Positions 19,741 through 64,000 of a stretch of DNA of 64,000 nucleotides are shown here, in pieces. The notes under the pieces are model-generated. The model had not been told where the DNA came from. It did no database searches and saw only the letters and a program-made list of their open reading frames with translations. How positions within the stretch are numbered: position 1 is the stretch's first letter; each line of letters opens with the position of its first letter. The DNA is from a virus: positions 126,553 to 190,552 of IMG/VR virus record IMGVR_UViG_3300032293_001706; one strand, given 5' to 3'. Both the position numbers and the translations under genes were made by a program.

Positions 19741-19745
19741 ATAAT

Positions 19746-21416
19746 ATGATGACATTTGTAACAGGTTTATGGGATATAGGTAGGGATGAACTATCTGAAG
19801 GTTGGTCAAGAAGTTATGAACATTATTTAAATAAACTTGAACAACTTTTAAAAACAGATATTAATTTTATAATTTTTGGTGATAAAAAATTAGAAGAATT
19901 TGTTAATCAAATAAGAAGTAACGAAAACACACAATTTATTTTAAGAGAAAAGGAATGGTTTAAACAAACAGTTCCATTTGAAAAAATACAAGAAATACGA
20001 AACAATCCGAATTGGTATAATCAGGCAGGATGGTTAAAAGATTCAACACAAGCAAAATTAGAGTGGTATAATCCACTTGTAATGTCCAAGGTTTTTTTAT
20101 TACATGATGCAAAAATTTTGGATAAATTTAATTCTACCCATTTATTTTGGGTAGATGCGGGGATAACAAATACAGTTCATCCAGGATATTTTACCCACGA
20201 TAAAATTCAAGAAAAGTTACCAAAAGTGTTTGATAAGTTTGGATTTGTCACATTTCCATATATTGCAAATAATGAAATACATGGGTTTTCCTATCCAAAG
20301 ATAAATACTTTTGCTGATTCTGATGTGAATTTAGTATGTAGGGGAGGGTTATTTGGCGGTAGGAAAGAAATAATATCCGACATAAATACAATTTATTATA
20401 ATATCTTAAATGATACAATAAATCAAGGATATATGGGAACAGAAGAATCCATATTCAGTATTATGTTGTATAGACATTCAGATATAATTGATTATGTGGA
20501 GATTGAAGAGAATGGATTGATATCTAAGTTTTGTGAAGATTTAAAAAACGATACATACGAAGTTAAAAATATAAAAGGAAAACGGATTAAAAACCAGAAC
20601 TTAGATATAACAAAAACCGCATTATACGTAATTACTTTTAATAGTTCAAATCAATTTGAAACATTAATAAAATCAATGTTAGAATATGATGAAAATTTTA
20701 TTAAAAAGCCTAAAAAATTTTTATTGGATAATTCAACGGATTTAACAACAACACCTAGATATGAAGAATTATGTAAAGAATATGGGTTTGAACATATTAA
20801 GAAAGACAACATTGGAATTATGGGTGGTAGAGTATTTGTTGCAGAACATTTCGATGAAACAGGACTTGATTTTTATTTTTGGTTTGAAGATGATATGAAT
20901 TTTTATCCAAAAAAAGGTGAAGTATGTAAAAATGGTTTTAACAGATATATATCAAATTTATATGAGACATCTTTGGATATAATTAAAAAAGAAGATTTTG
21001 ATTTTCTGAAGTTAAACTATACCGAATTTTATGGAGATAATGGTGTACAATTTGCATGGTATAATGTACCAAGTGGATTTAGAAAAAAACATTGGCCTGA
21101 TAAACCAAATTTACCCGTAAGAGGGTTAGACCCAAATGCTCCGAGAACAAAATTTAATGAAATAAAATCATATAATAATGTGCCATACGCAAAAGGTGAA
21201 ATCTATTTGTCGAACTGGCCAATAGTTTTAACAAAACAAGGTAATTATAAATGTTATTTGGAAACAAAATTTCAACATCCTTATGAACAGACTTTAATGA
21301 GTTATTCTTTTCAAGAAACCATTAAAAATTTAATAAACCCAGGTGTTTTATTAATTACACCAACAGAACATAATAGATTTGAATATTACGACGCTAATTT
21401 AAGAAAAGAATCGTAA
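19746..21416 (+). CDS. HtrL/YibB-like domain fused to GT-A-like domain
   Basis: TFVTGLWDIGR, FWVDAG, GGLFGG, GTEESIF (HtrL-like); LYVITFN...FLLDNS...WFEDDM (GT-A-like). Confidence 0.65.
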   Translation: MMTFVTGLWDIGRDELSEGWSRSYEHYLNKLEQLLKTDINFIIFGDKKLEEFVNQIRSNENTQFILREKEWFKQTVPFEKIQEIRNNPNWYNQAGWLKDSTQAKLEWYNPLVMSKVFLLHDAKILDKFNSTHLFWVDAGITNTVHPGYFTHDKIQEKLPKVFDKFGFVTFPYIANNEIHGFSYPKINTFADSDVNLVCRGGLFGGRKEIISDINTIYYNILNDTINQGYMGTEESIFSIMLYRHSDIIDYVEIEENGLISKFCEDLKNDTYEVKNIKGKRIKNQNLDITKTALYVITFNSSNQFETLIKSMLEYDENFIKKPKKFLLDNSTDLTTTPRYEELCKEYGFEHIKKDNIGIMGGRVFVAEHFDETGLDFYFWFEDDMNFYPKKGEVCKNGFNRYISNLYETSLDIIKKEDFDFLKLNYTEFYGDNGVQFAWYNVPSGFRKKHWPDKPNLPVRGLDPNAPRTKFNEIKSYNNVPYAKGEIYLSNWPIVLTKQGNYKCYLETKFQHPYEQTLMSYSFQETIKNLINPGVLLITPTEHNRFEYYDANLRKES

Positions 21417-21447: not shown

Positions 21448-23670
21448 ATGGCGTGTTTAAGCGGTGTTACTAGCGGTTCAGGATGGTCTTATGTGGACTG
21501 TGTTGGAAATTTTCAATCAGGGGATACTATTGGGTTGTCAGTTTGTTATGACCCAAATCCTATATCGGGGTATTTACCTATTAACATAACGCAATCAGAA
21601 GTAGAGTGTACTCCAACTAATTATCAATTTTCTGCTTGTTGTAATGGGGCATTATATAAAACAACCTCATTTTCGACTTTCTCAGCAGGAACTTCTTATT
21701 ACATTGAGAGTGATTTATTTACAGGTTGTACAACTGTTGTAACATATTCAGGTGCGGGAACAAGTATAAACTTAACATCAACAGGAGTATCATATGCAAA
21801 TTGTTCTTTATGTGTTGCAGAAACACCTTGTCCACCTGCAAGTGACTTCCAATTCAGGTCATGTTGTGACCCAACCGTTACATTTATTATAAATGATTAT
21901 GTTGCGGAATTAACATCGGGTGAAGTTTATTATATTATAAGTACAGGTTTCACAGGTTGTGCCGAAGTAATACCATATACAGGTTTAGGTGAAAGATATG
22001 ATGCAACTTCATTAACAGGTCCTTATGATGATTGTGCATCTTGTATGGATGATTATCCTTGTTATTGTGTTTGTAAAAATTATTTATTAAATAATACACA
22101 AGAAGTTGATACCTATGTTTCATTTTTTGATTGTTATGGTAATGAACTTACAATTACACTACCGGCAGGAAATAGTCTTGAAATTTGTGCTTGTGAAGAT
22201 ACCGTATTAGTTCCACCTGGAGTTATTTTAACCGATTTAGGCGATTGTACTTTTGAAACTCAAACACCTACACCTACACCAACAGTAACACCAACACCAA
22301 CTGCAACACCAACTTATAGCGCTTGTAGTGAACAGTTTTGTTTAAGAACTGAATATTCACAATTTAGTAATTATGACGGACAATATACAAGTGGTGGGAC
22401 ATATAACTCAAGACCATATTATACAGGTTCAACAACAGGAACAGTATATTATGATGGAACACAATGGTGTTTATCAAATACTTTAGGTGGTAGTTGTGTT
22501 TTATATGGTAAGACACCTTGTTTTTCTAACTGTCCTGACATTGATGAAGAAATTTGGACCGTAGGAGTTTGTCCGACACCAACACCTACTCCAACACCAA
22601 ATATTTGTGTAACAGTAGACTTTAATGCGTTATTTGATTGCGATTATACACCTGATGTAACGGTAACGTGTGAAACACCAACACCTACTCCAAGTGTAAC
22701 ACCCACAATAAATCCTTGTATTGGAGTTGATGCCGATATTGATATCATTAATACCTCACCTACTCCAACACCTACTCCAACAGTAACACCCACACCTTCA
22801 TTAGTTAGAAGTGTTAATGTGTCAGGGGCAACCACATACACATTAGTTGATACAGAATTTATGTGTAATTTCGTTAGAAAAATACAAGATTGTGATACAA
22901 GTGAAATACATTACGTTTCACAAGGTATAAGAACTATTAATAACACAATAGTATCAACAGGACAAACCTTTAGTGCTTATGTTGACGGTGTTTATAAATG
23001 TTTCACATATTTAGGAATAGTATATGACCAAAGTGCTACTCTAACACTAAATTCTATTACCAATTCATTTACAGCTTGTACAGCTTGTACAAACTCATTA
23101 ACACCAACTCCGACACCAACAGCAACTGTAACACCTACAATAAGTGTTACACCATCAGTTACACCATCAGTTACACCATCAGTTACTCCATCAGTTACTC
23201 CAACATTAACTCCGACATTAACTCCGACACCGACTAAGACAGTAACACCAACACCTTCAATAAATTCTTCAGCAACACCTACTCCAACACCGACTAAGAC
23301 ACCAACTCCAACACCGACTAACACACCGACTAACACGATAACACCAACACCAACGAGAACACCAACAAAAACACCGACACCTACACCATCAGTGACATCA
23401 ACAGTCACTCCGACACCGACATTAACGCCAACACCAACATCTACTTTAACTCCAACACCATCACAACAACCAATTAATTATTTAGTTCAAAATTGTACTG
23501 AAAGTAACATTGCGTATGTAAGTAATTTAGGTGGATTAACAATTAATATTGGTGATAAAGTTAAACTTTCAGGTACAGGATATGAAGGTTGTTGGGAAGT
23601 AATTAACTATACATTAAGTGTTCCATCAACAACAATAATCTCGGTTCACGCAACATGTGATTGTAACTAA
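21448..23670 (+). CDS. Cys-rich structural protein with long Pro/Thr mucin-like stalks
   Basis: Many Cys pairs; PTPTPTVTPT repeats at about 22260-22320, 22575-22800 and 23100-23460. Confidence 0.6.
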   Translation: MACLSGVTSGSGWSYVDCVGNFQSGDTIGLSVCYDPNPISGYLPINITQSEVECTPTNYQFSACCNGALYKTTSFSTFSAGTSYYIESDLFTGCTTVVTYSGAGTSINLTSTGVSYANCSLCVAETPCPPASDFQFRSCCDPTVTFIINDYVAELTSGEVYYIISTGFTGCAEVIPYTGLGERYDATSLTGPYDDCASCMDDYPCYCVCKNYLLNNTQEVDTYVSFFDCYGNELTITLPAGNSLEICACEDTVLVPPGVILTDLGDCTFETQTPTPTPTVTPTPTATPTYSACSEQFCLRTEYSQFSNYDGQYTSGGTYNSRPYYTGSTTGTVYYDGTQWCLSNTLGGSCVLYGKTPCFSNCPDIDEEIWTVGVCPTPTPTPTPNICVTVDFNALFDCDYTPDVTVTCETPTPTPSVTPTINPCIGVDADIDIINTSPTPTPTPTVTPTPSLVRSVNVSGATTYTLVDTEFMCNFVRKIQDCDTSEIHYVSQGIRTINNTIVSTGQTFSAYVDGVYKCFTYLGIVYDQSATLTLNSITNSFTACTACTNSLTPTPTPTATVTPTISVTPSVTPSVTPSVTPSVTPTLTPTLTPTPTKTVTPTPSINSSATPTPTPTKTPTPTPTNTPTNTITPTPTRTPTKTPTPTPSVTSTVTPTPTLTPTPTSTLTPTPSQQPINYLVQNCTESNIAYVSNLGGLTINIGDKVKLSGTGYEGCWEVINYTLSVPSTTIISVHATCDCN

Positions 23671-23897: not shown

Positions 23898-25666
23898 GTG
23901 TAATAGTTAAAAACGAATGTGGAGTTCAAACAATTTTACCGTTAGGTATTGATTGTTTTGTGGTTGATGCGACAACACCGGTGTCATTAGATGGAACAAT
24001 ATACTTAAATATTACAGGTGGTACATCTCCATATTTAATTACTTGGGATAATGGGTCAAATTCACAAAATTTATATTCAGTATCTGCTGGTACTTATACA
24101 GCAACTGTTGTTGATTTTTATGGAGACTATACCGCAACAACAACTTGTACAGTTGGGACCGAACAAATTTATGTGGATTATTTTAAAGATTGTTCACAAA
24201 CATATAATCTATATTTAACAGGGTTGACAGACACATATACCGAGGGTTCTATCTATAGGTTAAGTGCAAATACGGGTTGTTGGGAATATTCGGGTAAAGT
24301 TTTAAGTGGTACATATACTTTAAATTTTGATAATATTTTGGAAGGTCCTTATGATACTTGTGAAGAATGTGACCCGCCAACCGAACAACCGTATTTTCCA
24401 AATTCTTTATGTTTATATACAGAGAATCCATATACGACATATCAATTCTTATTTTATGGTTATGTAAATGAAAGACCAGCATATACAGGAACATCTTTAA
24501 ACAGTTTAAGTTATTCCATTCAATGGACGACAGGGTTTACAAATGAATGGAAAGTTATTGGAAAAGAAGACAATACATTAACAAACGGAAACGATACCTA
24601 TAATCCTCTTGGTAGTTGGACTTTAAATGGAACTCAACAAGTTTGGACTGCAGTTTCAGGAACTTGTCCAACGATTAAAGAGTTAACTGCAACACACGCG
24701 ACATCAGACCCAAATTGTGAAAGCACATGTAACGGAAGTAGTATAGTTGTAACAGCAACAGGTGGAATATCACCATATCAATATTCGTTTGATAATGGTT
24801 TATATAGTGTTATACCAAGTAAAACATCGTTATGTCCAGGTTCACATACATATACAGTTTTAGATAGTAGTGGAAATACATTTACAAGTACATTTACAAT
24901 TAATAAAGGGGCGAAAGTATCAACATATACTTTATCTATCACTTTTAAAACCATTGACACTCAAATTGATTACGGAACTGAGGTTAGTAGAAGACTTCAA
25001 TATAATGTTAATGTTTCACCTCAATTACCATCAGGGACAGAAATAACGTTACCGATATTTGTTAATGTTTTGAAAAAAGTTTCAAGTCCTGGTGTTACGA
25101 CAGTTACATATACACCGTATTTGTATAGTGGAAACACTTCAGTATCACCAAGTTCAAACACATTAATAAATACACAAATAACAAAACCAAACCCATATAA
25201 CTTTAATTATCCGTATGAAACAACAGCTTATACATACAGTGTTAATTATAGTAATGTTATTTTAAAAAATGGTTTGACGGTTTCAGGATATGTAGATACT
25301 ACAATCACAAAAGTTTCTGATGGAACACCAACTTGTAATTGCAGTTCGTATTCTGTTGAAAACCCATCATCATCAGTCCAATATTATAATTGGACTAATT
25401 GTACTGGCGGAACTGAAACAGGTTACTTCTTACAACCAGGTCAAACATCAAATATATGTGCTTGTGGGGTTACGGCAACAACACCAAGTTCATTAATCAT
25501 TACAAAAGGTGGTGGAAGTTTAAATTGTTCAGGTGCGGTCACAGATGGTAACATTACGGTAAGTGCTGGTATGGGAGCGGCGTCTATAAACGGAGTTTGT
25601 AATGCTGTTAATATTCAGACACCATCAACAGAACAATTATATAGTCAATTATATCAACTATTCTAA
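23894..25666 (+). CDS. Structural protein with SprB-like repeats
   Basis: TGGTSPYLITWDNG...AGTYTATVVD and TGGISPYQYSFDNG...GSHTYTVLD. Confidence 0.55.
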   Translation: MSVIVKNECGVQTILPLGIDCFVVDATTPVSLDGTIYLNITGGTSPYLITWDNGSNSQNLYSVSAGTYTATVVDFYGDYTATTTCTVGTEQIYVDYFKDCSQTYNLYLTGLTDTYTEGSIYRLSANTGCWEYSGKVLSGTYTLNFDNILEGPYDTCEECDPPTEQPYFPNSLCLYTENPYTTYQFLFYGYVNERPAYTGTSLNSLSYSIQWTTGFTNEWKVIGKEDNTLTNGNDTYNPLGSWTLNGTQQVWTAVSGTCPTIKELTATHATSDPNCESTCNGSSIVVTATGGISPYQYSFDNGLYSVIPSKTSLCPGSHTYTVLDSSGNTFTSTFTINKGAKVSTYTLSITFKTIDTQIDYGTEVSRRLQYNVNVSPQLPSGTEITLPIFVNVLKKVSSPGVTTVTYTPYLYSGNTSVSPSSNTLINTQITKPNPYNFNYPYETTAYTYSVNYSNVILKNGLTVSGYVDTTITKVSDGTPTCNCSSYSVENPSSSVQYYNWTNCTGGTETGYFLQPGQTSNICACGVTATTPSSLIITKGGGSLNCSGAVTDGNITVSAGMGAASINGVCNAVNIQTPSTEQLYSQLYQLF

Positions 25667-25699
25667 TTACGGAAATACAAATCATTATATTTATAAAAA

Positions 25700-27901
25700 A
25701 TGGCATATATTTTAAAAGATACTTCAGCGTTACTTAACACACAAATAACTGATGTGGGAAGGAGAAAATTATCACAAGGTAATTTTAATATTTCTTATTT
25801 CCAATTAGGAGATAGTGAAGTTTGTTACAATTGTATTAGCGGTCAAAATTTATCAAACTTACAAGTTTTTGTACCTGAATTTAATGCGCAAAATAATACA
25901 GGGGTTCCACAAAGTAATAGATTGGGGGTTAAATATCCAATATATCTTTCAAGTTCAACGGGGGATACAAATACATTTGGAATTCCATTTCAAGACTCAC
26001 AAGTTGTTGATGTTTTTAATACACCAAAACCACGTGGGTTCTTTACAGGTGGTTCAGGAAATTTCTCCGCTTTTACAAATTCCGCATTAACGGTAACATC
26101 AAATTATAGTTTTAAATTATCAGGAGTGTCTGGTACTAGCAAATTTGTTGTTACATCAGGTGCTTGTGACGTTACCGTTACAGGTACACCACAAGTGAAT
26201 CAATTTGTCACACTATTCTTTGATAATTCTGCAAATTGTGGGGTTGTTAATTTTCCTTATCCGATATTAACGTATAAAGTATGTGGGGTTACAGGTAATA
26301 CAATTGAAGTTGATAGAAATCTTCCAATATTTAATACTTTTTCAGGTTCAGGAAGGGCAATTTTCTATCCATCAGGTATGACACCATATTATGACAGTTA
26401 TACTCCAGAACCTTACTACGATAGCGGAGTTTTTTCATTTGAGTTAAATTGTGAAATCCAAAATTCTGATGTTGAAGTATGGAATATGAATCAACCTTGG
26501 AGTGAAACACCGGCAGGGTTAACATATACACAATATAAAGACCATAACGAATTTGGGTCCGTAAATTACATTGGAACAAAAGAATATTTAGGATATCAAT
26601 CAGATACAGGACAGACCTTTGAAAATAAAACAGGAACAATATATCCGACAAATACATTTTATAAAAACTCTTTCCAAGAACAAATTGATGTTTTTCCATC
26701 AGAACAAAAGGTAATATCGATTATTCATTACACAAATCAAAGTATTGATAACTTTTATGGCGAAAAATTCGCAATGGAACCTTTTGATGATACACAATCA
26801 GGTGCTACAGGTCAAGCAAGAAACTTTAAATTAACTTTACCTACTTTGATGTGGCACAAATCACAGAATAACACAATAGGTGAAACATTCTATGTGGACC
26901 CACCAAATTTTGAATCTTTGGATTTAGTTCAACCATATTTCATGAAATCAAATGATGATGACAATTTTAATAATCCGGGATTAAGATACTATCATTTATG
27001 GGATACAAATGCTGACGCTAATGGTTATCCAAATAGAGTTGGTAAAGTATTTCCTGATTTAAAAATTGTAACCATTGATGATGAAGAATTATGTGTGACA
27101 CTTTCATATAAATCAAATAGAAATTATACACTGCCAGCGCCAAGAATAGGATTGGTAGTTCCCAATACATTTAATCAGAATATCTCCTCAACAGATGGGG
27201 TTTTAAGTGCTGAAACCGAAACAATGTTTGTTACATATAGATTTGGTAATACAGGTTCAACAAATGGTATGCATTGTAATTATTACTCCAAAATTAAAGG
27301 GTCTACAATCACAGGACAAACTGATGATGTTATTGTAAGATTCGGTTCAGAGTTTCCATTTTTAATTGAAGAAATGACATCACAACCTTCAGGGTTTACC
27401 TGTAATTCAGTTAAATTAATTTGTCAAAAAGTAACAACAGGTGAAAGACCAGACCCAATGAGTTGGGTTGAAATTGATGTTACATCGGCAATTACAGCAA
27501 ACACAGGTTCAATAAATATAAGTGCGGCAGAGTTAACAGGAACAACGTTCCAAATTACAAAAAGTTCATATGAAAGTGCAAGTTTATATAGTTTAGAAAG
27601 TTATATTGATTTACCATTGTTAAATTATAATACAGGTATGACTTTTGGTGAAGAATATTATTTTTATGGTAATATTGAAACAGATGTTCAGGCAACAATA
27701 TATGAAATGAGATATTTGGTTAATTTAGCAAACAGTCAATATATCCGTTCATCCAATCCAACTTGGAATTTTGGGGACAATGTGTATTTTACAGAGATTG
27801 GTCTGTTTGATAATGATAAAAATATGTTAATATATTCAAAACTACAAAGTCCCGCAAAAAGACAAGGGGTTCAACAAATAACAATAAAGTATGATTTTTA
27901 A
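25700..27901 (+). CDS. Baseplate/tail-collar-like structural protein
   Basis: N-terminal TQITDVGRRKL...ISYFQLGDSE and C-terminal FTEIGLFDNDKNMLIYSKL, typical of tail-collar/baseplate proteins. Confidence 0.6.
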   Translation: MAYILKDTSALLNTQITDVGRRKLSQGNFNISYFQLGDSEVCYNCISGQNLSNLQVFVPEFNAQNNTGVPQSNRLGVKYPIYLSSSTGDTNTFGIPFQDSQVVDVFNTPKPRGFFTGGSGNFSAFTNSALTVTSNYSFKLSGVSGTSKFVVTSGACDVTVTGTPQVNQFVTLFFDNSANCGVVNFPYPILTYKVCGVTGNTIEVDRNLPIFNTFSGSGRAIFYPSGMTPYYDSYTPEPYYDSGVFSFELNCEIQNSDVEVWNMNQPWSETPAGLTYTQYKDHNEFGSVNYIGTKEYLGYQSDTGQTFENKTGTIYPTNTFYKNSFQEQIDVFPSEQKVISIIHYTNQSIDNFYGEKFAMEPFDDTQSGATGQARNFKLTLPTLMWHKSQNNTIGETFYVDPPNFESLDLVQPYFMKSNDDDNFNNPGLRYYHLWDTNADANGYPNRVGKVFPDLKIVTIDDEELCVTLSYKSNRNYTLPAPRIGLVVPNTFNQNISSTDGVLSAETETMFVTYRFGNTGSTNGMHCNYYSKIKGSTITGQTDDVIVRFGSEFPFLIEEMTSQPSGFTCNSVKLICQKVTTGERPDPMSWVEIDVTSAITANTGSINISAAELTGTTFQITKSSYESASLYSLESYIDLPLLNYNTGMTFGEEYYFYGNIETDVQATIYEMRYLVNLANSQYIRSSNPTWNFGDNVYFTEIGLFDNDKNMLIYSKLQSPAKRQGVQQITIKYDF

Positions 27902-28454: not shown

Positions 28455-29654
28455 ATGGAAGAAGAAATTATATTTGAATTGTTAGATGATTTTACATCTG
28501 GTGGGAAGTTATATTATGATGATGAATATAAGTCAATATGGATGATAAATCCAGATACAAAACAATGGATATTTGAATTCAAAAAAACAGGAACTTTATG
28601 GTATTCTTATCCGGTTTTTACCAAAATTTTTAAATACGTTTCGATGGATTATCCTGATTTTAACCCGTATATTAAAAAGTGGGTTGAAAGAATCCTTCAA
28701 AAGGAGGCTAAAAACACCCAATCAATGGGGGGTCAGGAGACATTTTGGGTTGAAAGAATCCTTCAAAAGGAGGTTAAAAACACCATTGAACTTAATGGCT
28801 CAGCCGCCCCAACGGTTGAAAGAATCCTTCAGCAAGATAATAATTTAGACTTAAATGAAAACATTAATGAAAGTGAAGAATCCCCATTAGTTGATGAAGA
28901 AATTATATTTGAATTATTAGATGATTTTACATCTGATGGGAAGCTATATTATGATGATAAAACGGAATCCATATGGATGATAAATCCAGATACAAAAGAA
29001 TGGATATTTGAATTCGAAAAATCAGGAGATTTATGGTATCATTATAAAGTTTTTGAAAGTATTTTTAAATACATTTCGATGGAATATCCTGATTTTGAAC
29101 CATACATAACAAAGTGGGCTGAAAGAATCCTCCAAAAGGAGGTTAAAGACACCGCAAACTCGTATTGGGTGCTGCCGATGGCCGCTGAAAGAATCCTTCA
29201 AAAGGAGATTAAAGACACCATTTTTGTGCAACATCTGCAAAACTCTGGAGTTGAAAGAATCCTTCAACAAGATAATAATTTAGACTTAAATGAAAACATT
29301 AATGATGGCGAAGAACCATCATCAGTTGATGAAGAAATTATATTTGAGTTGTTAGATGATTTTACTAATGATTATGATAAGTATCAATCTTATAATGGAG
29401 ATACTTTTCTTATTAATCCTAATAAGAAAGATTGGTTAATAGAAATAGATGAAGAAAACTATTTATGGTATAACAAAGATATATTTGTAAAAATTTTCAA
29501 ATACGTTTCGATGGAATACCCTGATTTTGAACCATATATAACAAAGTGGGTTGAAAAAAAAATTAACATTAAAATTAAAGAAACTTATGATATTTTCTGG
29601 GGTAGAGGGGGTAAAATAATAGATGTAATTACAAATGGATTTAAAGAAACATAA
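28455..29654 (+). CDS. Three tandem copies of a ~75-aa domain (EEEIIFELLDDF...PDFxPYIxKW), each followed by in-frame repeat/spacer units
   Basis: Internal triplication visible in the translation; modules joined by QDNNLDLNENIN linkers; TATTTAT motif at 28430-28436. Confidence 0.85.
   Translation: MEEEIIFELLDDFTSGGKLYYDDEYKSIWMINPDTKQWIFEFKKTGTLWYSYPVFTKIFKYVSMDYPDFNPYIKKWVERILQKEAKNTQSMGGQETFWVERILQKEVKNTIELNGSAAPTVERILQQDNNLDLNENINESEESPLVDEEIIFELLDDFTSDGKLYYDDKTESIWMINPDTKEWIFEFEKSGDLWYHYKVFESIFKYISMEYPDFEPYITKWAERILQKEVKDTANSYWVLPMAAERILQKEIKDTIFVQHLQNSGVERILQQDNNLDLNENINDGEEPSSVDEEIIFELLDDFTNDYDKYQSYNGDTFLINPNKKDWLIEIDEENYLWYNKDIFVKIFKYVSMEYPDFEPYITKWVEKKINIKIKETYDIFWGRGGKIIDVITNGFKET
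28683..28831. CRISPR. CRISPR-like mini-array A1, in frame within CDS (2 full and 1 partial repeat, 2 spacers)
   Basis: Repeats 28683-718 and 28749-784 (GTTGAAAGAATCCTTCAAAAGGAGG[C/T]TAAAAACACC), partial 28815-831; both spacers exactly 30 nt. Confidence 0.7.
29118..29267. CRISPR. CRISPR-like mini-array A2, in frame within CDS (2 full and 1 partial repeat, 2 spacers)
   Basis: Repeats 29118-153 and 29184-219, partial 29250-267; both spacers 30 nt and unrelated to the A1 spacers. Confidence 0.7.
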
Positions 29655-29902: not shown

Positions 29903-30976
29903 ATGGAAGAAGAAATTATATTTGAGTTATTAGATGATTTTACATCTGATGGAAAGTTATATTATGATGATGAATATGACTCCATATGGATGATAAATCC
30001 AAAAACAAAAAAATGGATATTTGAATTCGAAAAATCAGGAAATTTATGGTATTCTTATTCAATTTTTAACAAAATTTTTAAATACGTATCGATGGAATTC
30101 CCTGATTTTGAACCATACATAACAAAGTGGGCTGAAAGAATCCTCCAAAAAGAGGTTAAAGACACCTTTCATGGTCTTCGAAACTTTCCCGCTCCAGTTG
30201 AAAGAATCCTTCAAAAAGAGGTTAAAGACACCCGGATGGACAGCTATACATCAACAGCGGTGGTTGAAAGAATCCTTCAAAAAGAGGTTAAAGACACCTC
30301 ATCCAGTTCGCTTTTCTTAGGGAAGGTGGTTGAAAGAATCCTTCAAAAAGAGGTTAAAGACACCGAACATTTTGAAGAGCGTTTCATTGAAGTGGTTGAA
30401 AGAATCCTTCAAAAAGATAATAGTTTGGATTTAAATGAAAGTTCACCGATTAAATTAATCCAATTATTTAAAGAAGTTTTAATTGAAGGTCAAATAGATG
30501 GAACATTAGTTAATAAAACTTATGATGGTTATAATGTTAAATTTATTTTATCTAAACATGCCGATGAAAGAAGAAATAGAGTTGATAATTATTCAGAAAT
30601 AACATATGAAGAACTAATATCCGCAATTGAGGAAGCAATTCCTAAGATTGTTGATAAAGCGTTTAAAACACATAAACGAAATATTGTAGGACCTGTTAAC
30701 AATGGAATGATATATATTAGAGATAGTAAGACAGGACAATTAAATAAAAAAGACGCTCAAGAGTTTTTCATCTACAAAAAAGAATCAGAATTACAAATTA
30801 AATGTAAGGTTTTAAATTTTGATAAAAATAAGGGTTATATTGAAATTATAATAAAAACTTTAATGAAAAGTCGTACAGATAAATTAAATATGAACGACCC
30901 GAAAAGAAACACCCTGTATTTAAATATTTTTGAAAACATTAATAACTTTGAGAATTATTTTATAATAGAAATATAA
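29903..30976 (+). CDS. ~75-aa domain, in-frame array and C-terminal domain with SxHAxER motif (possible RNase/toxin fold)
   Basis: N-terminus near-identical to module 2 of 28455; C-terminal LSKHADERRNR; TATTTAT motif at 29878-84. Confidence 0.8.
   Translation: MEEEIIFELLDDFTSDGKLYYDDEYDSIWMINPKTKKWIFEFEKSGNLWYSYSIFNKIFKYVSMEFPDFEPYITKWAERILQKEVKDTFHGLRNFPAPVERILQKEVKDTRMDSYTSTAVVERILQKEVKDTSSSSLFLGKVVERILQKEVKDTEHFEERFIEVVERILQKDNSLDLNESSPIKLIQLFKEVLIEGQIDGTLVNKTYDGYNVKFILSKHADERRNRVDNYSEITYEELISAIEEAIPKIVDKAFKTHKRNIVGPVNNGMIYIRDSKTGQLNKKDAQEFFIYKKESELQIKCKVLNFDKNKGYIEIIIKTLMKSRTDKLNMNDPKRNTLYLNIFENINNFENYFIIEI
30131..30417. CRISPR. CRISPR-like array A3, in frame within CDS (4 full and 1 partial repeat, 4 spacers)
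   Basis: Repeats start at 30131, 30197, 30263 and 30329 (GTTGAAAGAATCCTTCAAAAAGAGGTTAAAGACACC), partial 30395-417; strict 66-nt period. Confidence 0.75.
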
Positions 30977-39663: not shown

Positions 39664-40200
39664 ATGCGGAAGAGCAGAAAAAGTGACGAAAAAACTAAAT
39701 ACTTTTTAGTTGCGTTTGGAGACTTTAGTGGTAAAAAAGAGTTACTTACACAAATACTTATGCAGTTTCAACCAATATTAGCATCTAACTTCCTAAAATT
39801 TAATTTTGGTGATGATTATATATTAGCCCATTTTGAAACTAATGAAAAACATAGGGATGTAATAGAGTTTTGTGATATCATTTTGTCAGGTACATTAAAA
39901 AATTATATGGTCATACCACATAATAAAGATGTCTTTATATCCTTTCCGACAAATTTTAAAGATTTTTTACTTGATTTGGATAGTAATACAAAATTTGAGA
40001 ATGACATAATGTCAGTAGATGATTTCACGGATGAAGATGAAGAGATAATGGAACAAATATTGTCAGCGATGCTCCACCAAAAAGAAATTGAACCTAAAAT
40101 ATCATTAAACGAGTTATTGGAGAAGGTACATACCAAAGGATTTAAAAATTTAACAAAAAAAGAAAAAAACATACTTTATGAATATTCAAAAAGAGTCTAA
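39664..40200 (+). CDS. Hypothetical protein
   Basis: C-terminal LNELLEKVHTKGFKNLTKKE motif; overlaps the sigma gene. Confidence 0.55.
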   Translation: MRKSRKSDEKTKYFLVAFGDFSGKKELLTQILMQFQPILASNFLKFNFGDDYILAHFETNEKHRDVIEFCDIILSGTLKNYMVIPHNKDVFISFPTNFKDFLLDLDSNTKFENDIMSVDDFTDEDEEIMEQILSAMLHQKEIEPKISLNELLEKVHTKGFKNLTKKEKNILYEYSKRV

Positions 40201-41002
40201 CACATTTTCAAAAAACACAGGTGTAATCAATCAAGAAGAAATTTCTTCATACCTTAAAGACATTAGAAAACTAAAAGTAATGACAGTAGAACGAGAAAAA
40301 GAACTGTCTGAAAGAATGTTATCGGGTGAATGTAGTGAAAGAGAAAAACAAGAAATTTACAATGAACTTCTCGAAGGTAATCTCAGATTTGTAATTACTG
40401 TTGCAAAACAATATCAAAACCAAGGGTTGGATTTACCAGACCTAATTGCTGAAGGTAATTTGGGTCTTATGAAGGCTATTCAGAGTTTTGATTGGTCAAA
40501 GAAACTTAGGTTTATATCATATGCCGTATGGTGGGTTAAACAGTCAATTATTCAATCATTGAATGAAAATGCAAGAACAATTAGACTTCCTGTTAACGTA
40601 GTACAAGAATTGCATAAAGCAAAAAAAGAAGTTGAAAAAGGATTGTCAGAATTAGATGACAAGTTTTCCATACTACCATCAACGATTAACTTGGAGTCAA
40701 CCATTAATGAAGACGGTGACACATTGCTGGACATGATTGAAAACCCAAACGCAATTCAACCAGATGAAGAATTAAATAATGAACACAATATTAAAGACAA
40801 ACTTATGTCAACAATGAAAGTTTTAGATGAACGAGAAAGGGCAATTGTTGAAGATTATTTTGGTCTAACAGGTACTCCAAGAACCTTGGAAGATATTGGG
40901 GAAGACTTTAACCTAACAAAGGAAAGGGTTAGACAAATTAAAGAAAAAGCTTTGAGAAAGTTGAGAAACGAATGTTCTATACTTTTAGACTATTTGCAAT
41001 AA
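40178..41002 (+). CDS. RNA polymerase sigma-70 factor, Bacteroidota primary-sigma-like
   Basis: NLRFVITVAKQYQNQGLDLPDLIAEGNLGL, FISYAVWWVKQSI, RTIRLP, region 4 TLEDIG..FNLTKERVRQIKEKALRKLR; no region 1.1. Confidence 0.92.
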   Translation: MNIQKESNTFSKNTGVINQEEISSYLKDIRKLKVMTVEREKELSERMLSGECSEREKQEIYNELLEGNLRFVITVAKQYQNQGLDLPDLIAEGNLGLMKAIQSFDWSKKLRFISYAVWWVKQSIIQSLNENARTIRLPVNVVQELHKAKKEVEKGLSELDDKFSILPSTINLESTINEDGDTLLDMIENPNAIQPDEELNNEHNIKDKLMSTMKVLDERERAIVEDYFGLTGTPRTLEDIGEDFNLTKERVRQIKEKALRKLRNECSILLDYLQ

Positions 41003-41028
41003 AATTATATTTATAAATTAAAAACATT

Positions 41029-41313
41029 ATGAAATTTTTAGATTTTTTGAAAAAAAACCAACAACAAATATTGGTATTTCTTTTTATTCTTCTTCTATTT
41101 AGAACTTGTGGAGTTGGTTCAGAGGTTACAAGATTAAGAAAAGAAGTTGAATCACAAAGGAAAATATTGGTTAACTTACCAACAAAGAACGACATTAAGA
41201 TTGAAGGTCTTAAAGTTGAAAAAAGAATGATTCAATCAACAGACAGAACTATGATGGATGTTGAACGTCAAAATGAAATTGAAAGAGAAATAGAAAAAAT
41301 ACAATCAAAGTAA
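41029..41313 (+). CDS. Small membrane-anchored protein (lysis cluster)
   Basis: N-terminal hydrophobic segment; TATTTAT motif at 41008-14. Confidence 0.5.
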   Translation: MKFLDFLKKNQQQILVFLFILLLFRTCGVGSEVTRLRKEVESQRKILVNLPTKNDIKIEGLKVEKRMIQSTDRTMMDVERQNEIEREIEKIQSK

Positions 41314-41315
41314 AA

Positions 41316-42170
41316 ATGAAAAAGTGGTTAAATAAAAATCTTAATTCTGTTATTATTGGAAGTTTTCTTATTCCAATTCTACTGGTTGCATTTGTATCAA
41401 TATCGCACGTAACAACTTTCTATAAACTTTCTAACCCATTTGTATGGGCTATTTATCTATCAGTTGCAGTTGAGGTGGCAGCTCTTGCGGCTCTTGCTGG
41501 TGTATCAGCAAAGTTTGGAAAATTTATTTATATACCTTTTGGTATTGTTACGTTAATACAGTTTATAGGTAATTTCTTTTTTTCATATACTTGGATTAAT
41601 ATTAACTCTAAAGAATTTAAGGATTGGGTTGATATGGTAGGGGCAATTTTAGAACCAATGGGTATTGATTCTGCCGACCTATCTAGTCAAAGAAGAGTCC
41701 TTGGATTTTTAACAGGTGGTTTACTACCATTCATTTCATTAACTTTCGCACACATGTTGATTGTTTATTCGAATAAAATAAAAGATGAAGTTGTTGAGAA
41801 AGTCGACACTAATCAAGTTGAAAAGAATAACCGTTCAAAAAAGAATAAACAAAACGATGATATGGTTAAAGTTGAAGATTTGACCGAAAAAGATATTGAA
41901 AGAATATCAAGAAGAACCGCAAGGAGAGAAAAAGAAAGAATGGATAAAGAAAAACCATATGTTCCATCACAAGAAGACTTGGAAAAATTAAAAAATATTA
42001 TGGAAAAACAATTTGGATTTACTGAACCTAAAAATGAAAACCAAGAAATAAAGGTTGAGGATAATACCCCACAAGTTACCCCTGAACCAAGTTATTTTGT
42101 TGATGATGAACCGGTAATGGACGAAGAAAATAAATCGAATAGATTGGTTTATTCAAAAGATGAAGGATGA
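41316..42170 (+). CDS. Multi-pass membrane protein, holin candidate
   Basis: Four hydrophobic segments and a charged tail; directly upstream of the amidase. Confidence 0.45.
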   Translation: MKKWLNKNLNSVIIGSFLIPILLVAFVSISHVTTFYKLSNPFVWAIYLSVAVEVAALAALAGVSAKFGKFIYIPFGIVTLIQFIGNFFFSYTWININSKEFKDWVDMVGAILEPMGIDSADLSSQRRVLGFLTGGLLPFISLTFAHMLIVYSNKIKDEVVEKVDTNQVEKNNRSKKNKQNDDMVKVEDLTEKDIERISRRTARREKERMDKEKPYVPSQEDLEKLKNIMEKQFGFTEPKNENQEIKVEDNTPQVTPEPSYFVDDEPVMDEENKSNRLVYSKDEG

Positions 42171-44404: not shown

Positions 44405-45763
44405 ATGACACCACCGAAAAACCCACAAATCTTTAGTTTGTGGGATGTAAGGTGATTTTAATTTAACATAAATTATTTTTTTTTCAAAAAATGAAACTTT
44501 TTGTAATTTAATATATATTTATACTATATAAGGTAATTTAGTATAAATGTTAAAATCATATAAATATAAACTTAATCCGAATGAGGAGCAAATTGTTTTG
44601 TTAAATAAACATTTTGGTTCTATTAGGTTTGCGTATAATTATTTTCTTAATGAAAGAAAAAAAGAATATGAAACAAATAAGCAAAGTTTAAATTATTATG
44701 ATAATGCAAAATCATTAACCGAACTAAAAAAACAAGAAGAATACTCTTGGTTAAACGAAATTAATTCACAATCATTACAAGTATCATTAAAACATTTGGA
44801 TGATGCATATAACGGATTTTTTAAAAAAAGAACAGGTTTTCCAAAATTTAAATCAAAACACACAAAAAATAGTTTTAAGGTTCCACAGTTTGTTAAATTG
44901 GAAAAAGGCAAGTTAAAAATACCAAAATTTAATAAGGCAATTGATGTTATTTTACATAGAAGTTTTAATGGCAAAATTAAATCTTGTACAATATCAAAAA
45001 CACCAACAAATGAATATTTTGTTTCCATCCTTGTGGAAACCAAACATAAGAAATTGGACAAAACCGGAAAATCAATCGGGATTGATTTGGGGCTGAAAGA
45101 TTTTCTTACAACCAGCGATGGTTATAAATATAAAAATAATCGTTATACAAAAACTTATCAAACATTACTTAAAAAAGCTCAACAACATTTGAGTAGAAAA
45201 ACAAGAGGTTCAAACAAATATCAAAAACAAAAACTGAAAGTTGCAAAACTACACAAGAAGATAACCAATTCTCGTTTAGATAATTTGCACAAAGTATCCA
45301 CAGATTTGATTCGAAAATACGATTTAATTGTATTAGAAGACTTAAATATTAAAGGAATAATTAAAAATCATAAACTTTCAAAACATATTGCTGATGCCAG
45401 TTGGTCAAAGTTCATAGAACTTTTAAAATATAAAGCGGAATGGAATGAAAAAGAAATTGTTAGAATTGATAGATTTTTTCCTTCCAGTAAAACTTGCAAT
45501 TGTTGTGGATATATAAATCAAAATCTAAAATTAAATATGAGAGAATGGACTTGTCCATCTTGTAATACAAAATTAGATAGAGATTTAAATGCTAGCCAAA
45601 ACATCCTTAATGAAGGATATAAAATAATATCGGACGGGACATCCGATAACAGAAGTCGAGGCGAAATAAGACCAACTTTAGTTGGCACAACCGATGAAAC
45701 TTTTAAAGTTCTGAATATTTATAATTCAGAAGCCCAACCATCTTTAGTGGTTGGGTAGTTCAC
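44405..45763 (+). mobile_element. IS200/IS605-family (IS1341-like, tnpB-only) element
   Basis: Left hairpin CCCACAAA-TCTTTAG-TTTGTGGG (44422-44), right hairpin CCCAACCA-TCTTTAG-TGGTTGGG (45733-55), ending TAGTTCAC; preceded by TTTAT; no tnpA in the window. Confidence 0.8.
44547..45758 (+). CDS. tnpB: TnpB RNA-guided endonuclease
   Basis: HTH (KSYKYKLNP), RuvC-I GIDLGL, RuvC-II LEDLN, Zn ribbon CNCC...CPSC, RuvC-III DRDLNA; catalytic D-E-D intact. Confidence 0.95.
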   Translation: MLKSYKYKLNPNEEQIVLLNKHFGSIRFAYNYFLNERKKEYETNKQSLNYYDNAKSLTELKKQEEYSWLNEINSQSLQVSLKHLDDAYNGFFKKRTGFPKFKSKHTKNSFKVPQFVKLEKGKLKIPKFNKAIDVILHRSFNGKIKSCTISKTPTNEYFVSILVETKHKKLDKTGKSIGIDLGLKDFLTTSDGYKYKNNRYTKTYQTLLKKAQQHLSRKTRGSNKYQKQKLKVAKLHKKITNSRLDNLHKVSTDLIRKYDLIVLEDLNIKGIIKNHKLSKHIADASWSKFIELLKYKAEWNEKEIVRIDRFFPSSKTCNCCGYINQNLKLNMREWTCPSCNTKLDRDLNASQNILNEGYKIISDGTSDNRSRGEIRPTLVGTTDETFKVLNIYNSEAQPSLVVG

Positions 45764-60330: not shown

Positions 60331-60367
60331 TTTGTTTTTTTAAAATCTTTTGCATAGATTTGTAGTT

Positions 60368-60970
60368 ATGAAAGCTCTTTTTTTGGACCATGATGGTGTT
60401 ATTTGTCTCAGAGACCAATGGGGAAGTAGATTTAAAAAGGAAACGAAGCTTAGAGAAAAGACAGGAATATCAAGAAATTTGAGTTCACCTGACTATGTAC
60501 TGCCTGTTGATTGTAGATTTGATAATTTTGATAAAAAGGCAATCAAAATCCTTAATAAAATTTTGGAAGTAACAGATGTTGAAATTGTTGTATCTTCAGA
60601 TTGGAAAAATTGGGCAAATGTTGAAGAAATGGGGGAATATTACCTATCACAAGGTATTATTAAAAAACCAATCGCATTTACACCAAGGCTGAGTGAATGT
60701 ACCAATTATGATAATGAAACATTTCCTTGGAGCCGTCAATGGGACTTGGAACAAAGTCGTTCACTTGAAATCAAACAATATCTTCAAAATAACCCACAAG
60801 TAACACATTGGGTTGCGGTAGATGATTTGAATATGGGTAAAACAGGAATGAGTTACAGCATAAAGTTTGAACATGATTGGGGACTTGATAATTTTGTCCA
60901 TACACCACTTTCAAATGAAGGAATTAAACAAAGTGGGGTAAAAGAAAAAATAATTAATTTCTTGATGTAA
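60368..60970 (+). CDS. HAD-superfamily (Swiss-army-knife-type) phosphatase
   Basis: FLDHDGV, IVVSSDW, SLEIKQYL, WVAVDDL; ATG start chosen at 60368. Confidence 0.8.
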   Translation: MKALFLDHDGVICLRDQWGSRFKKETKLREKTGISRNLSSPDYVLPVDCRFDNFDKKAIKILNKILEVTDVEIVVSSDWKNWANVEEMGEYYLSQGIIKKPIAFTPRLSECTNYDNETFPWSRQWDLEQSRSLEIKQYLQNNPQVTHWVAVDDLNMGKTGMSYSIKFEHDWGLDNFVHTPLSNEGIKQSGVKEKIINFLM

Positions 60971-61008
60971 TATTGATAAAAAAATAATTAAAACCTATAA
61001 TTTAAAAT

Positions 61009-61182
61009 ATGAAGACAATTAGGAATAAAAAAACAGGAGAACTAAAACGTCTAAACGACAGAGAAGCCCACAAAATGATTGTAACAACTTATTTAGGTTG
61101 GGAGTATGTACCAAAACAGATTTGGAAAAATGAAACAAGAACAGAATCTGTTAAAAAGAATAATCCCAAACTTAAAAAATAA
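61009..61182 (+). CDS. 57-aa hypothetical protein
   Basis: MKTIRNKKTGELKRLND.EA....GWEYVPKQIWK, translated by hand. Confidence 0.55.
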   Translation: MKTIRNKKTGELKRLNDREAHKMIVTTYLGWEYVPKQIWKNETRTESVKKNNPKLKK

Positions 61183-61183
61183 T

Positions 61184-61375
61184 ATGAATCAGAAAGAGGA
61201 AAAACTTTTGATGTCGAAATTAAGGAGTCCTCTCCATATTAGTTACATTGCACATATTCTCAAATGTGACATTGAAAAAGCGACTGAAATTATTCAAGAA
61301 TTGGAAAAAAACGATATTGTTGTTGAATACAACAGAGAAGTTGCAAAAGGATATTACGTAATAAAAAATAAATAA
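61184..61375 (+). CDS. Small winged-HTH-like protein
   Basis: HISYIAHILKCDIEKATEIIQELEKNDIV..GYY pattern. Confidence 0.45.
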   Translation: MNQKEEKLLMSKLRSPLHISYIAHILKCDIEKATEIIQELEKNDIVVEYNREVAKGYYVIKNK

Positions 61376-61376
61376 T

Positions 61377-62570
61377 ATGAAAGTTTTTTTAGAATATATT
61401 TGGTTGGATGGTTATAAACCAGAACCAAATCTTAGAAGTAAGGTAAAAGTAATTGACCATAATCAATATAATATTAAATTAGATGATTGTCCCGAATGGT
61501 CATTTGATGGTTCATCGACAAAACAAGCGGAAGGACATTTTTCAGATTGCATTTTAAAACCTGTTAAAATTTATCCAAACCCATTAAACACTAGCAAAAA
61601 ACCATCATTTTTTGTTTTTTGTGAAGTTATGAATCCAGACGGAACACCGCATAGTTCAAATACAAGGGCATCAATTAGGTCAACGGTTCCATTATCAGAC
61701 TCATTTGAAAAAATAACACCGAGCAGTTCAAACGAAGGAGAATTAATCAGTGAAGAAGATGAAGATTTATGGTTTGGGTTTGAACAGGAATATACAATTA
61801 TTAAAGATGGTAGACCACTTGGTTTTCCGATTAATGGGTATCCTGAACCGCAAGGAAAATATTATTGTGGTGTTGGAAACGGACAGGTAAATGGACGTGA
61901 ATTTGTTCAAAAACATATGGAATATTGTATTGGTGCAGGAATTGACATTACAGGAACAAATGCGGAAGTTCTTTTGGGACAATGGGAATACCAAGTTTTT
62001 TCAAAAGGTAAATTGAAAGCTGGTGACGACCTTTGGATTTCTAGATATATTCTACAACAAATGTCCGAAGATTATGGTTTTACCATTGAGTTCCATCCAA
62101 AACCTGTAAGCGGAGACTGGAATGGCTCTGGTCTACACTGCAATTTTTCAAATGGGAAAATGAGGGATATTGGTGGGGAAGAATACTTCAAAAGTATATT
62201 TTCTACTTTTGATTCAAGACATATAGAACACATTGAAAATTATGGTTCAGATAATAACCTAAGATTGACTGGAAAGCATGAAACACAATCAATTGACAAG
62301 TTTAGTTGGGGAATTTCTGACAGAGGAGCATCCATAAGAGTTCCTTTAAGTACCTCAAAAGAATGGAAAGGATATGTCGAAGATAGAAGGCCAGCATCAA
62401 ATGCAGACCCTTATAGAATTATTAAGGTGATTTCCGAATCTCTAAAACTTTCAGAAACAACCAATAATGTTAGACATATGATGTATGCTAATGTTAATCT
62501 TGATGACATTACAAACAAATATGGTATGATTTCAAATGAAGAACTTTTAAAAGATTATATTAATGACTAA
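61377..62570 (+). CDS. glnII: Glutamine synthetase type II
   Basis: EYIWLDG, WSFDGSST, GFEQEY, NAEV..GQWEYQ, HPKP..GDWNGSG.H.N, RLTG.HET, DRGASIRVP, EDRRPASN. Confidence 0.93.
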   Translation: MKVFLEYIWLDGYKPEPNLRSKVKVIDHNQYNIKLDDCPEWSFDGSSTKQAEGHFSDCILKPVKIYPNPLNTSKKPSFFVFCEVMNPDGTPHSSNTRASIRSTVPLSDSFEKITPSSSNEGELISEEDEDLWFGFEQEYTIIKDGRPLGFPINGYPEPQGKYYCGVGNGQVNGREFVQKHMEYCIGAGIDITGTNAEVLLGQWEYQVFSKGKLKAGDDLWISRYILQQMSEDYGFTIEFHPKPVSGDWNGSGLHCNFSNGKMRDIGGEEYFKSIFSTFDSRHIEHIENYGSDNNLRLTGKHETQSIDKFSWGISDRGASIRVPLSTSKEWKGYVEDRRPASNADPYRIIKVISESLKLSETTNNVRHMMYANVNLDDITNKYGMISNEELLKDYIND

Positions 62571-62733
62571 TTCAGAGAATACAGAAAAGTGTATCAATTG
62601 TGGAATAGACACCGAAATACCAATAAGACAAAATATCGATTTAAGATATGGATATGTTGAAGGTGCGGGTCAATTATGTTCAGAGTGTTTTAAAAAAATC
62701 TACAAAAAAGTAACGGAACAAAATAATGATTAA
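62563..62733 (+). CDS. 56-aa Zn-ribbon protein
   Basis: CINCG...YVEGAGQLCSEC, translated by hand. Confidence 0.6.
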   Translation: MTNSENTEKCINCGIDTEIPIRQNIDLRYGYVEGAGQLCSECFKKIYKKVTEQNND

Positions 62734-63217
62734 TTCTAAGACAAAAAGAATAATTTTGGTTGGAAAAGCGGCTTCAGGTAAAGATTTTTTAAGAAAAAAG
62801 TTTGAGAGTCGTGGTTTCACATTTGGTGTTAGTTACACAACAAGACCAAAAAGAAAGGGTGAAGAGGAAGGAAAAGATTATTATTTCTTAACTGAAGAAG
62901 AATCAAATAAAATGATTGAAGATGGGTTATTTTATGAATGTATATACTTTAATGGATGGTTATATGGTACAACCAAAGAACAGTTCTATCGTGACGATTT
63001 ATTCATTATGACACCAAAAGGGATATCTAAAATCAAACCTGAAGATAGAGAGAGTTCTTTTATTATTTATACTGATATAGATAGACAAACACGAATGAAT
63101 CGTTTATCAGAAAGAGAAATGCCTGGAGATAGTTTATTAAGAAGAATAGACGCTGATGAAATTGATTTTATGGATTTTAATGATTATGATATGAGAATCA
63201 CAAATCCTAATTTTTAA
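62726..63217 (+). CDS. gmk: Guanylate kinase-like protein
   Basis: GKAASGK P-loop, SYTTRPKR.GE..G.DYYF, YGT. Confidence 0.85.
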   Translation: MINSKTKRIILVGKAASGKDFLRKKFESRGFTFGVSYTTRPKRKGEEEGKDYYFLTEEESNKMIEDGLFYECIYFNGWLYGTTKEQFYRDDLFIMTPKGISKIKPEDRESSFIIYTDIDRQTRMNRLSEREMPGDSLLRRIDADEIDFMDFNDYDMRITNPNF

Positions 63218-63218
63218 A

Positions 63219-64000
63219 ATGGAAAAACAAATAATATTAGAATTTCTTAATGACTTCACAAAAGGTTATGATATATATCATCATAATGGTTCCATGTGGT
63301 TTATTTTAACCGAAGATAGAAAGTGGTTAATAGAATTAGATAAAAAAGGAACTTTGTGGTATAACTATCATTTTTTTTCGGGTATTTTTAGGTATGTAGC
63401 AATGGAATACCCTGATTTTACACCATATATAACAAAGTGGGTTGAAGACACCATTCAAAATGGGGTTAAGAACACCTACTTGCCGTTCAGGTTTTCCACG
63501 AAGCGAGTTGAAGACACCATTCAAAATGGGGTTAAGAACACCCACCAAACCAGTGGGTGCCGTGAAATTGGAGTTGAAGACACCATTCAAAATGGGGTTA
63601 AGAACACCGTTTGTGGTGAGCGATTCGCAGCAGGGAATGTTGAAGACACCATTCAAAATGGGGTTAAGAACACCAGAAATAAAAACTACGAGCCTGAAGG
63701 TTACGTTGAAGACACCATTCAAAATGGGGTTAAGAACACCTATTCAGACGTGATATATCACGTCTCCTACGTTGAAGACACCATTCAAAATGGGGTTAAG
63801 AACACCTATTTTGACTTCGAAAAACCCCTGCAGGAAGTTGAAGACACCATTCAAAATGGGGTTAAGAACACCCATTGCGTAGCGTCGTCCGTAGGTGATG
63901 GCGTTGAAGACACCATTCAAAATGGGGTTAAGAACACCAGTGCGTTTAAATTTGCAATAATGAACGCAGTTGAAGACACCATTCAAAATGGGGTTAAGAA
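63219..64000 (+). CDS. ~74-aa conserved domain fused in frame to the CRISPR-like array (3' truncated; absent from ORF track)
   Basis: ATG 63219, MEKQIILEFLNDF...MEYPDFTPYITKW, then (VEDTIQNGVKNT + 10 variable aa)n with no stop to the window end. Confidence 0.85.
   Translation, partial: MEKQIILEFLNDFTKGYDIYHHNGSMWFILTEDRKWLIELDKKGTLWYNYHFFSGIFRYVAMEYPDFTPYITKWVEDTIQNGVKNTYLPFRFSTKRVEDTIQNGVKNTHQTSGCREIGVEDTIQNGVKNTVCGERFAAGNVEDTIQNGVKNTRNKNYEPEGYVEDTIQNGVKNTYSDVIYHVSYVEDTIQNGVKNTYFDFEKPLQEVEDTIQNGVKNTHCVASSVGDGVEDTIQNGVKNTSAFKFAIMNAVEDTIQNGVK
63441..64000. CRISPR. CRISPR-like array B: at least 9 identical 36-nt repeats and 8 unique 30-nt spacers
   Basis: GTTGAAGACACCATTCAAAATGGGGTTAAGAACACC at 63441, 63507, 63573, 63639, 63705, 63771, 63837, 63903 and 63969 (cut by the window edge). 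Confidence 0.85.

Follow-up and report, generated by a model that had tools for sequence, protein, structure and literature searches.

A CRISPR-like array lying in frame within a jumbo-phage gene carries spacers matching a Bacteroidota chromosome

The contig examined here, IMG/VR record IMGVR_UViG_3300032293_001706 (hereafter G000; 190,552 bases, 30.0% G+C, CheckV completeness 63%), is that of a T4-like freshwater jumbo phage, and carries genes for a T4-type capsid, portal and head protease as well as SbcCD-like genes. The window that we analysed is its last 64 kb (G000:126553–190552), and positions below are window positions unless another sequence is named. At the end of the window, on the plus strand, lies a gene (63219–64000) of at least 260 codons whose reading frame is still open where the contig stops; given that window and contig end together, its stop codon lies beyond the readable sequence. 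The first 74 residues form a domain of no known family (63219–63440; a helix, a beta sheet and two helices), and from the very next codon after its last residues, ...YITKW, the gene consists of a CRISPR-like array (63441–64000). Eight 36-nt repeats, identical over their full length, start at 63441, 63507, 63573, 63639, 63705, 63771, 63837 and 63903, while a ninth (63969–64000) is cut at 32 nt because the contig ends there. An earlier reading, made from the sequence alone, had counted nine identical repeats, which holds for the eight complete ones. Its other descriptions of the array were borne out: each of the eight spacers is exactly 30 nt, their combined G+C on recounting is 110/240 in an AT-rich genome, and the 66-nt period, equal to 22 codons, preserves the frame, the translation being (VEDTIQNGVKNT + 10 aa)n. 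Upstream (60350–63217), genes for a HAD protein of RNA-repair type, glutamine synthetase II and guanylate kinase stand in an order that recurs at an orthologous locus, L005, where the array gene stops immediately after its last repeat and is followed by a second copy of the domain.

For the domain (model pLDDT 79–95, blocks 1–80), searches of Pfam and PHROG returned nothing significant, Foldseek found no match in the PDB at E 0.001 or better, the ESM Atlas gave no usable match, matches in BFVD were to uncharacterised phage proteins only, and VIA-align of a poor single-sequence model reached a best Z of 4.4. Such an absence of fold matches does not amount to a new fold. The array was modelled as a beta-solenoid of low confidence (pLDDT 33–61), to be compared with solenoid or leucine-rich-repeat-like proteins, and its best fold match (Z 8.8, rmsd 3.6, 127 aligned) stands amid unrelated solenoids. 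Our best guess is that the product of the 63219 gene is a repeat scaffold that displays variable peptides against host factors. Elsewhere in G000 we noted leucine-rich-type repeats of 20–21 residues and, in large putative virion proteins, low-complexity tracts of Pro-Thr and Gly-Thr-Ser (window 4100–4300, 9275–10070 and 22250–23480; G000 25038–25934 and 69199–69262).

The same architecture recurs within G000, which holds 11 copies of the domain in five ORFs, most of them leading into an array whose repeat is related, and 26 spacers across all arrays. Two paralogues lie in the window on the plus strand. The first (28455–29654) has three domain modules joined by acidic INE or LNE linkers, with arrays at 28683–28834 and 29118–29269 and a third array that has decayed; the second (29903–30976) consists of the domain, a four-spacer array (30131–30415), an LNE linker and an unrelated C-terminal domain. 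Repeats start at 28683, 28749, 29118, 29184, 30131, 30197, 30263 and 30329, and the last unit of each of these arrays is a 5'-half repeat. The sequence-only reading had reported three arrays at 28.7–30.4 kb with a different repeat; the arrays are real, but the repeat proves to be related, with 27/36 positions identical, in register, to that at 63441. Four further array-bearing modules lie outside the window, at 18.7–19.8 kb and 41.3–41.7 kb of G000. The ORFs there (L003, G000 18554–20611, plus strand; L004, G000 40054–41976, minus strand) are three-module polyproteins with arrays and with INE linkers between modules, whose C-termini are fused to unrelated domains, one of them nucleotidyltransferase-like by eye.

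INE or LNE is found at every module boundary of the four paralogues. In T4, the internal head proteins are cleaved by gp21 at L/I-X-E (PMC9026906). The boundaries fit this specificity, and G000 has a capsid, portal and head protease of the T4 type; the four paralogues may therefore be internal head polyproteins that are packaged and injected. It is important to note that the likeness is one of a three-residue motif in sequence, which makes this the weakest step of our account. The 63219 gene has no INE or LNE linker and is located after metabolic genes, and we infer that the polyprotein reading does not extend clearly to it.

A degenerate pattern combining spacers 5 and 6, run against 185,579 species genomes, matched a single place, where the start of accA in a 2.2-Mb Bacteroidota MAG from a river is identical to spacer 6 over its full length. 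Six of the eight spacers match this MAG with E values of 1e-6 to 3e-10, far beyond chance, a seventh has an exact match in a close relative, and matches are present in only 8 of 61 relatives of the MAG. All lie in ordinary host genes. Spacer 1 (63477–63506) is a 30/30 match to the antisense strand of a Glu/Leu/Phe/Val dehydrogenase gene. Spacers 2 (63543–63572) and 3 (63609–63638), also 30/30, follow the sense strand, in shifted frames, of genes for a 2Fe-2S thioredoxin-like (NuoE-type) protein and a multicopper oxidase, while spacer 4 (63675–63704; 30/30) keeps both the strand and the frame of a DUF4140/DUF4139 gene. Spacer 6 (63807–63836; 30/30) takes the 5' end of accA in the host frame, and its peptide, YFDFEKPLQE, is AccA's own. 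Matches of 29/30 were found for spacer 5 (63741–63770), in a gene without a Pfam family (sense strand, shifted frame), and for spacer 8 (63939–63968), the oldest seen, in the start region of a rhodanese-thioredoxin gene; for spacer 7 (63873–63902), the genomes searched yielded no source. Spacer 5 contains a 20-nt palindrome, and the spacer has a second copy (88%) in its host gene at a distance of ~190 nt.

Thus seven of the eight spacers of this array match one freshwater Bacteroidota clade, five exactly. The total for G000 is 18 of 26, with 12 exact; in the paralogue at 29903–30976 all four spacers match (three exactly), and in that at 28455–29654 one of four does, at 27/30. Two sister phages have matches to the same clade for 4 of 7 spacers, with two or three differences each. 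The protospacers occupy both strands and five of six frames, and fresh spacers have a G+C content of 46.5%, compared with 51% for the host loci, and dinucleotides unlike those of the phage. The spacers have been copied, 30 nt at a time, from the chromosome of one Bacteroidota clade, on either strand and in several frames. This clade is probably the host of G000, an assignment from spacers of the kind made for huge phages (PMC7162821). Spacer matches in phage DNA outside arrays were not seen among the phage loci compared; neither a spacer source nor a domain homologue was found in cultured phages; spacer 8 has no exact match in IMG/VR, nor spacers 5 and 6 in JGI metagenomes. The spacers of a further locus, L009, had no match in 401 genomes of the class, in a search run without a positive control and with two candidates scored per genome.

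Comparison of related arrays reveals where units enter. The array in L005 has only the last spacer in common with ours (spacer 8, 30/30). Its newer repeats all differ from those of the 63441 array by the same two-base variant, whereas its last repeat retains the 63441 form, as expected if the first repeat is copied at each insertion. Relatives of the domain form 743 clusters at 90% identity and 482 at 50%, with up to 11 copies per genome, and in pairs of arrays with close domains 155 share only the last unit and 27 only the first (212 distinct arrays; the rows are related, so the counts are not independent). In the same related set, 10-residue spacers make up 75% of those in first position, against 29% of those in last position. 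Spacers flanked by identical repeats are all 30 nt (G+C 46.5%), whereas 39% of those flanked by decayed repeats are 30 nt (G+C 37%). Each new unit is inserted beside the domain, the first repeat being copied, and distal units decay. The codons at the 3' end of the domain (...KW) form a conserved, leader-like junction, and it is here that new units enter. The terminal repeat is degenerate, and between phages the repeats drift, with their ends and core kept. In old units the DNA decays while the protein motif stays, and a number of the older peptides have become fixed and occur widely. Old units can also be found in more than one gene, which we read as recombination through the repeats. Spacer edges appeared random in 51 fresh spacers. 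Microhomology as an insertion mechanism was set aside, given that the upstream flank of protospacers showed none with the repeat (P 0.49) and the downstream flank a marginal excess only (37/114, P 0.045).

The reading frame of the arrays is under selection. In host coding DNA, a 30-mer drawn at random has a probability of 0.708 of containing no stop, yet all 26 spacers in G000 are stop-free in frame (P 1.3e-4), as are all 27 spacers in arrays with no domain downstream (P 9e-5). Across 391 units of the main family (family A), defined at the DNA level without regard to frame, every unit is a multiple of three in length and stop-free, where ~205 with stops were expected; the remaining five frames hold many stops. 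The relatives having been retrieved through protein similarity, intact genes are favoured among them; this bias largely spares the G000 count of 26/26. Units persist only if they are free of stops and keep the frame. Three apparent in-frame stops were dismissed as units of a second family read one base off register. These observations, together with the chromosomal protospacers and the polar gain with copying of the first repeat, support a proposal of the sequence-only reading, namely that 30-nt inserts build a variable peptide array; they are not those of a static tandem repeat, nor of an untranslated array with adjacent cas genes.

The repeat is under selection at the DNA level too. In fresh repeats, 22 of 23 glycines are encoded by GGG and 25 of 25 terminal threonines by ACC, codons with genome-wide shares in G000 of 11% and 13%, and this bias relaxes in old units. 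Family B has a distantly related domain (HHalign 82%) and a repeat that is 25/36 identical in the same 36-nt register, both families sharing a core, CAAAATGGGG, at repeat positions 16–25. In family B the repeat is translated in another frame, with a shift of one base relative to the codon grid, giving VEEHYKMGVTTT (L040:1122–1367 and L063:2–306, both minus strand; also L041 and L088–L099). Family B and allied short arrays include spacers of 29 and 31 nt that shift the frame, a scatter of lengths like that seen in true arrays. Short coding arrays with frame-shifting spacers of 29 nt, 31 nt or less lie at L010:4581–4725, L083:6750–6840 and L041:5007–5180; two of their proteins begin MKxIITESQY, like T4 capsid-targeting sequences.

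With CRISPR arrays in general this array shares identical direct repeats, unique spacers of fixed length, protospacers, polar acquisition and a degenerate terminal repeat. It resembles CRISPR in acquisition, yet it belongs to neither type VI-B nor type II-C, because the locus has no effector or adaptation genes, and it is not a diversity-generating retroelement (DGR). The type VI-B (Cas13b) arrays of Bacteroidota described by Smargon et al. (10.1101/092577) are alike in their 36-nt repeat, 30-nt spacer, lack of cas1 and cas2 of their own, polar growth and chromosomal spacers; the phage array differs in that it lies on a phage and inside an ORF purged of stops, without cas13b or csx27/28, shows no significant acquisition motif or mRNA-strand bias, and grows, when aligned on the repeat core, at the end away from that of the VI-B leader. 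The II-C arrays of Bacteroidota, which are present in the host clade, likewise have 30-nt spacers, GTTG-type repeat ends and the core in register, but neither cas9 nor tracrRNA was found at the array locus, no significant PAM is seen, and the nearest host repeat is 47 nt long. The compact arrays lacking cas1 and cas2 that Al-Shayeb et al. described in huge phages (PMC7162821), with some spacers from the host chromosome, share with ours the jumbo-phage setting, short length, host-like repeats, absence of adaptation genes and spacers from the likely host. Those arrays were treated as non-coding guides, whereas here the array is coding, follows a conserved domain in the same protein, is in some cases joined to further domains downstream, and has old units that persist as protein. 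At the level of sequence, the phage repeat shares 22/36 positions with the Cas13b-linked repeat of a host relative (G060), taken in reverse, and 21/36 with the 36-nt II-C repeat of a host relative; random 36-mers reach 21 matches with a probability of 2e-4 or less. The 22/36 comparison is independent, while a separate pattern search was partly shaped by a VI-B repeat and hence is not.

With a probability of roughly 0.6, we conclude that a Bacteroidota-type class 2 CRISPR array has been domesticated as the 3' coding sequence of a phage gene, probably being filled by the Cas1-Cas2 of the host during infection. Degradation of the host chromosome during infection would supply fragments for integration by Cas1-Cas2, most likely the host type II-C enzyme acting in trans, with the last codons of the domain treated as its leader. 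Each event would add a constant piece of 12 residues and a new peptide of 10, since 36 and 30 nt make 66; phages receiving a stop or a frameshift would mostly be purged, and the product would be a repeat protein whose units each contain a variable part, and which probably serves to bind or distract host factors. Such filling in trans has a precedent in Flavobacterium columnare, where Hoikkala et al. (PMC8092290) found that II-C Cas1-Cas2 fills a VI-B array without cas1, chromosomal DNA included, the spacers acquired carrying the II-C motif; the 21 protospacers identified here show no significant motif, which counts against the host enzyme. The host Cas machinery is the likeliest source of the inserts. 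A host-clade genome, G010, has a type II-C locus (cas9-cas1-cas2) with spacers of 29–30 nt. Between cas1 and cas2 of that locus lies a 362-aa gene (L147:765–1851), YhcG/PDDEXK-like by eye.

Best placed among the alternatives, though we consider it unlikely, is the same capture and translation carried out by an integrase that the phage itself encodes and that has escaped recognition. Such an enzyme would sit well with the finding that no significant PAM motif flanks the 21 protospacers (position −5 shows a weak G/T preference: G10, T8, A3, C0), and with the length of the nearest host repeat, that of the G010 II-C locus, which is 47 nt as against 36 nt in the phage array. Cas1 was found in one of the eight closest host MAGs, which are incomplete, and the polarity appears reversed: once the repeat cores are superimposed, growth of the phage arrays takes place at what would be, in VI-B and II-C arrays, the end far from the leader (polarity from PMC8092290). 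Read from the growing end, phage and compared CRISPR repeats alike begin GTTG. The free drift of repeats between phages, with ends and core kept, would also fit. What tells against a phage integrase is that Cas1 and RT were not found in G000 or in five relatives that are 91–100% complete, nor Cas2 in G000, and that among the best 25 matches listed for 150 G000 proteins (PADLOC, NCBIfam, PHROG) there is no cas1, cas2 or integrase, the only cas-type matches being to TnpB/Cas12f and one Csx1 model. The spacer length, furthermore, is that of the host II-C system. Weighing these points, we infer odds of roughly three to one for host Cas1-Cas2 over a phage integrase. The sequence-only reading had likewise recognised no cas1, cas2, effector, RT or integrase, and Cas13b, too, was not found in G000 or four near-complete relatives, nor upstream within the window, by a model that as a positive control gave its match in G060. 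The TnpB gene (44547–45758, plus strand; IS200/IS605 type) scores also with Cas12f and Cas12u models and has no adjoining array that we could find, and one window protein matches, at 3e-44, a PADLOC Csx1 model marked 'found elsewhere'.

The next alternative, which we also regard as doubtful, is that the arrays are a tolerated accident, the junction being by chance a substrate for host Cas1-Cas2, the frame being kept for the sake of the C-terminus or fused domain, and the peptides being neutral. Beyond the stop filter, we see no preference for the host strand (14/21 spacers, expected 51%, P 0.19) or the host frame (7/21, P 0.31), and therefore the peptides look unselected at entry; their composition is that of random frames, high in S, L and R, and frameshifts are tolerated in the short family B arrays. 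Neutrality does not readily explain why fresh repeats keep rare codons and the 36-nt register across lineages and frames, which suggests a substrate that is being maintained, nor why arrays with nothing downstream are still free of stops. Hundreds of clusters, up to 11 copies in a genome, and the old peptides that have become fixed and widely shared also weigh against it.

Less probable still is that the working product is RNA, either antisense crRNAs of the Cas13b type or decoys against host mRNAs, with the frame secondary. The minus-strand repeat does have the orientation and length of VI-B repeats and a 30-nt spacer (10.1101/092577), arrays without cas genes that target host chromosomes exist in huge phages (PMC7162821), and 14–15 of 21 spacers would pair with host mRNA. 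This share, however, is not significantly different from the 51% expected (P 0.19), compared with 15/15 in natural VI-B arrays (PMC8092290); Cas13b occurs in 1 of 101 host relatives and in none of the closest; the repeat hairpin is insignificant (z −1 to 0.3); stops are purged in the coding frame only; and the 21 protospacers yield no significant PAM. The suggestion that the array provides guides for a host effector, the RNA half of the other proposal in the sequence-only reading, finds little support in the strand, PAM and Cas13b data. A search of Rfam, tracrRNA included, gave no match. In G060, an intact array of eight repeats lies next to a cas13b that is broken into two frames (L210/L211, G060:C1:1416485–1419710).

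DGRs place hypervariable segments on a constant scaffold by means of an RT, a template repeat and adenine-specific change. The phage protein has such a layout, and its strict period and the protein-like decay of old units might suggest hypermutation of the DGR kind, synthesis of random sequence, or a tandem protein repeat that is merely static. We give these virtually no credence, given that the spacers copy whole fragments of distinct host loci, often exactly, with no RT found, no template repeat, a flat positional base composition and adenine-rich repeats left untouched. That one spacer was hypermutated into another was ruled out separately, two similar G000 spacers mapping to different host loci.

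In the full-text literature, most subscription journals being outside its coverage, we found no description of translated or coding CRISPR arrays. To our knowledge, the CRISPR arrays described so far function through RNA, and proteins are diversified in known systems by mutation, by inversion or by recombining stored cassettes. In the present case, captured spacers appear to give a phage protein new 10-residue peptides made from foreign DNA, under selection for translation. We lean slightly towards a broader view, in which jumbo phages diversify a protein by CRISPR adaptation, using either the Cas1-Cas2 of the host or an integrase of their own, with 10-residue cassettes from host DNA and peptides selected in conflict with the host. 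If true, this would be a new use of CRISPR adaptation, possibly one with a PAM-free integrase that accepts coding sequence as its leader. It would also provide an example from nature of random frames turning into coding sequence, with peptides that can be followed in dated order from newly captured to fixed, and a direct record of host assignment for uncultured jumbo phages.

Non-coding mini-arrays were also observed at L067:8270–8520 and L082:19240–19480, with 36-nt repeats of the form GTTG...CAAC and spacers of 28–30 nt. They adjoin the 3' end of a TnpB/Cas12f-like gene, from which they are separated by a conserved intergenic stretch of ~200 nt, and are probably a phage type V-like system without cas1. 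By a hand count, the repeat of the L067 mini-array is identical to the coding repeat at ~21/36 positions.
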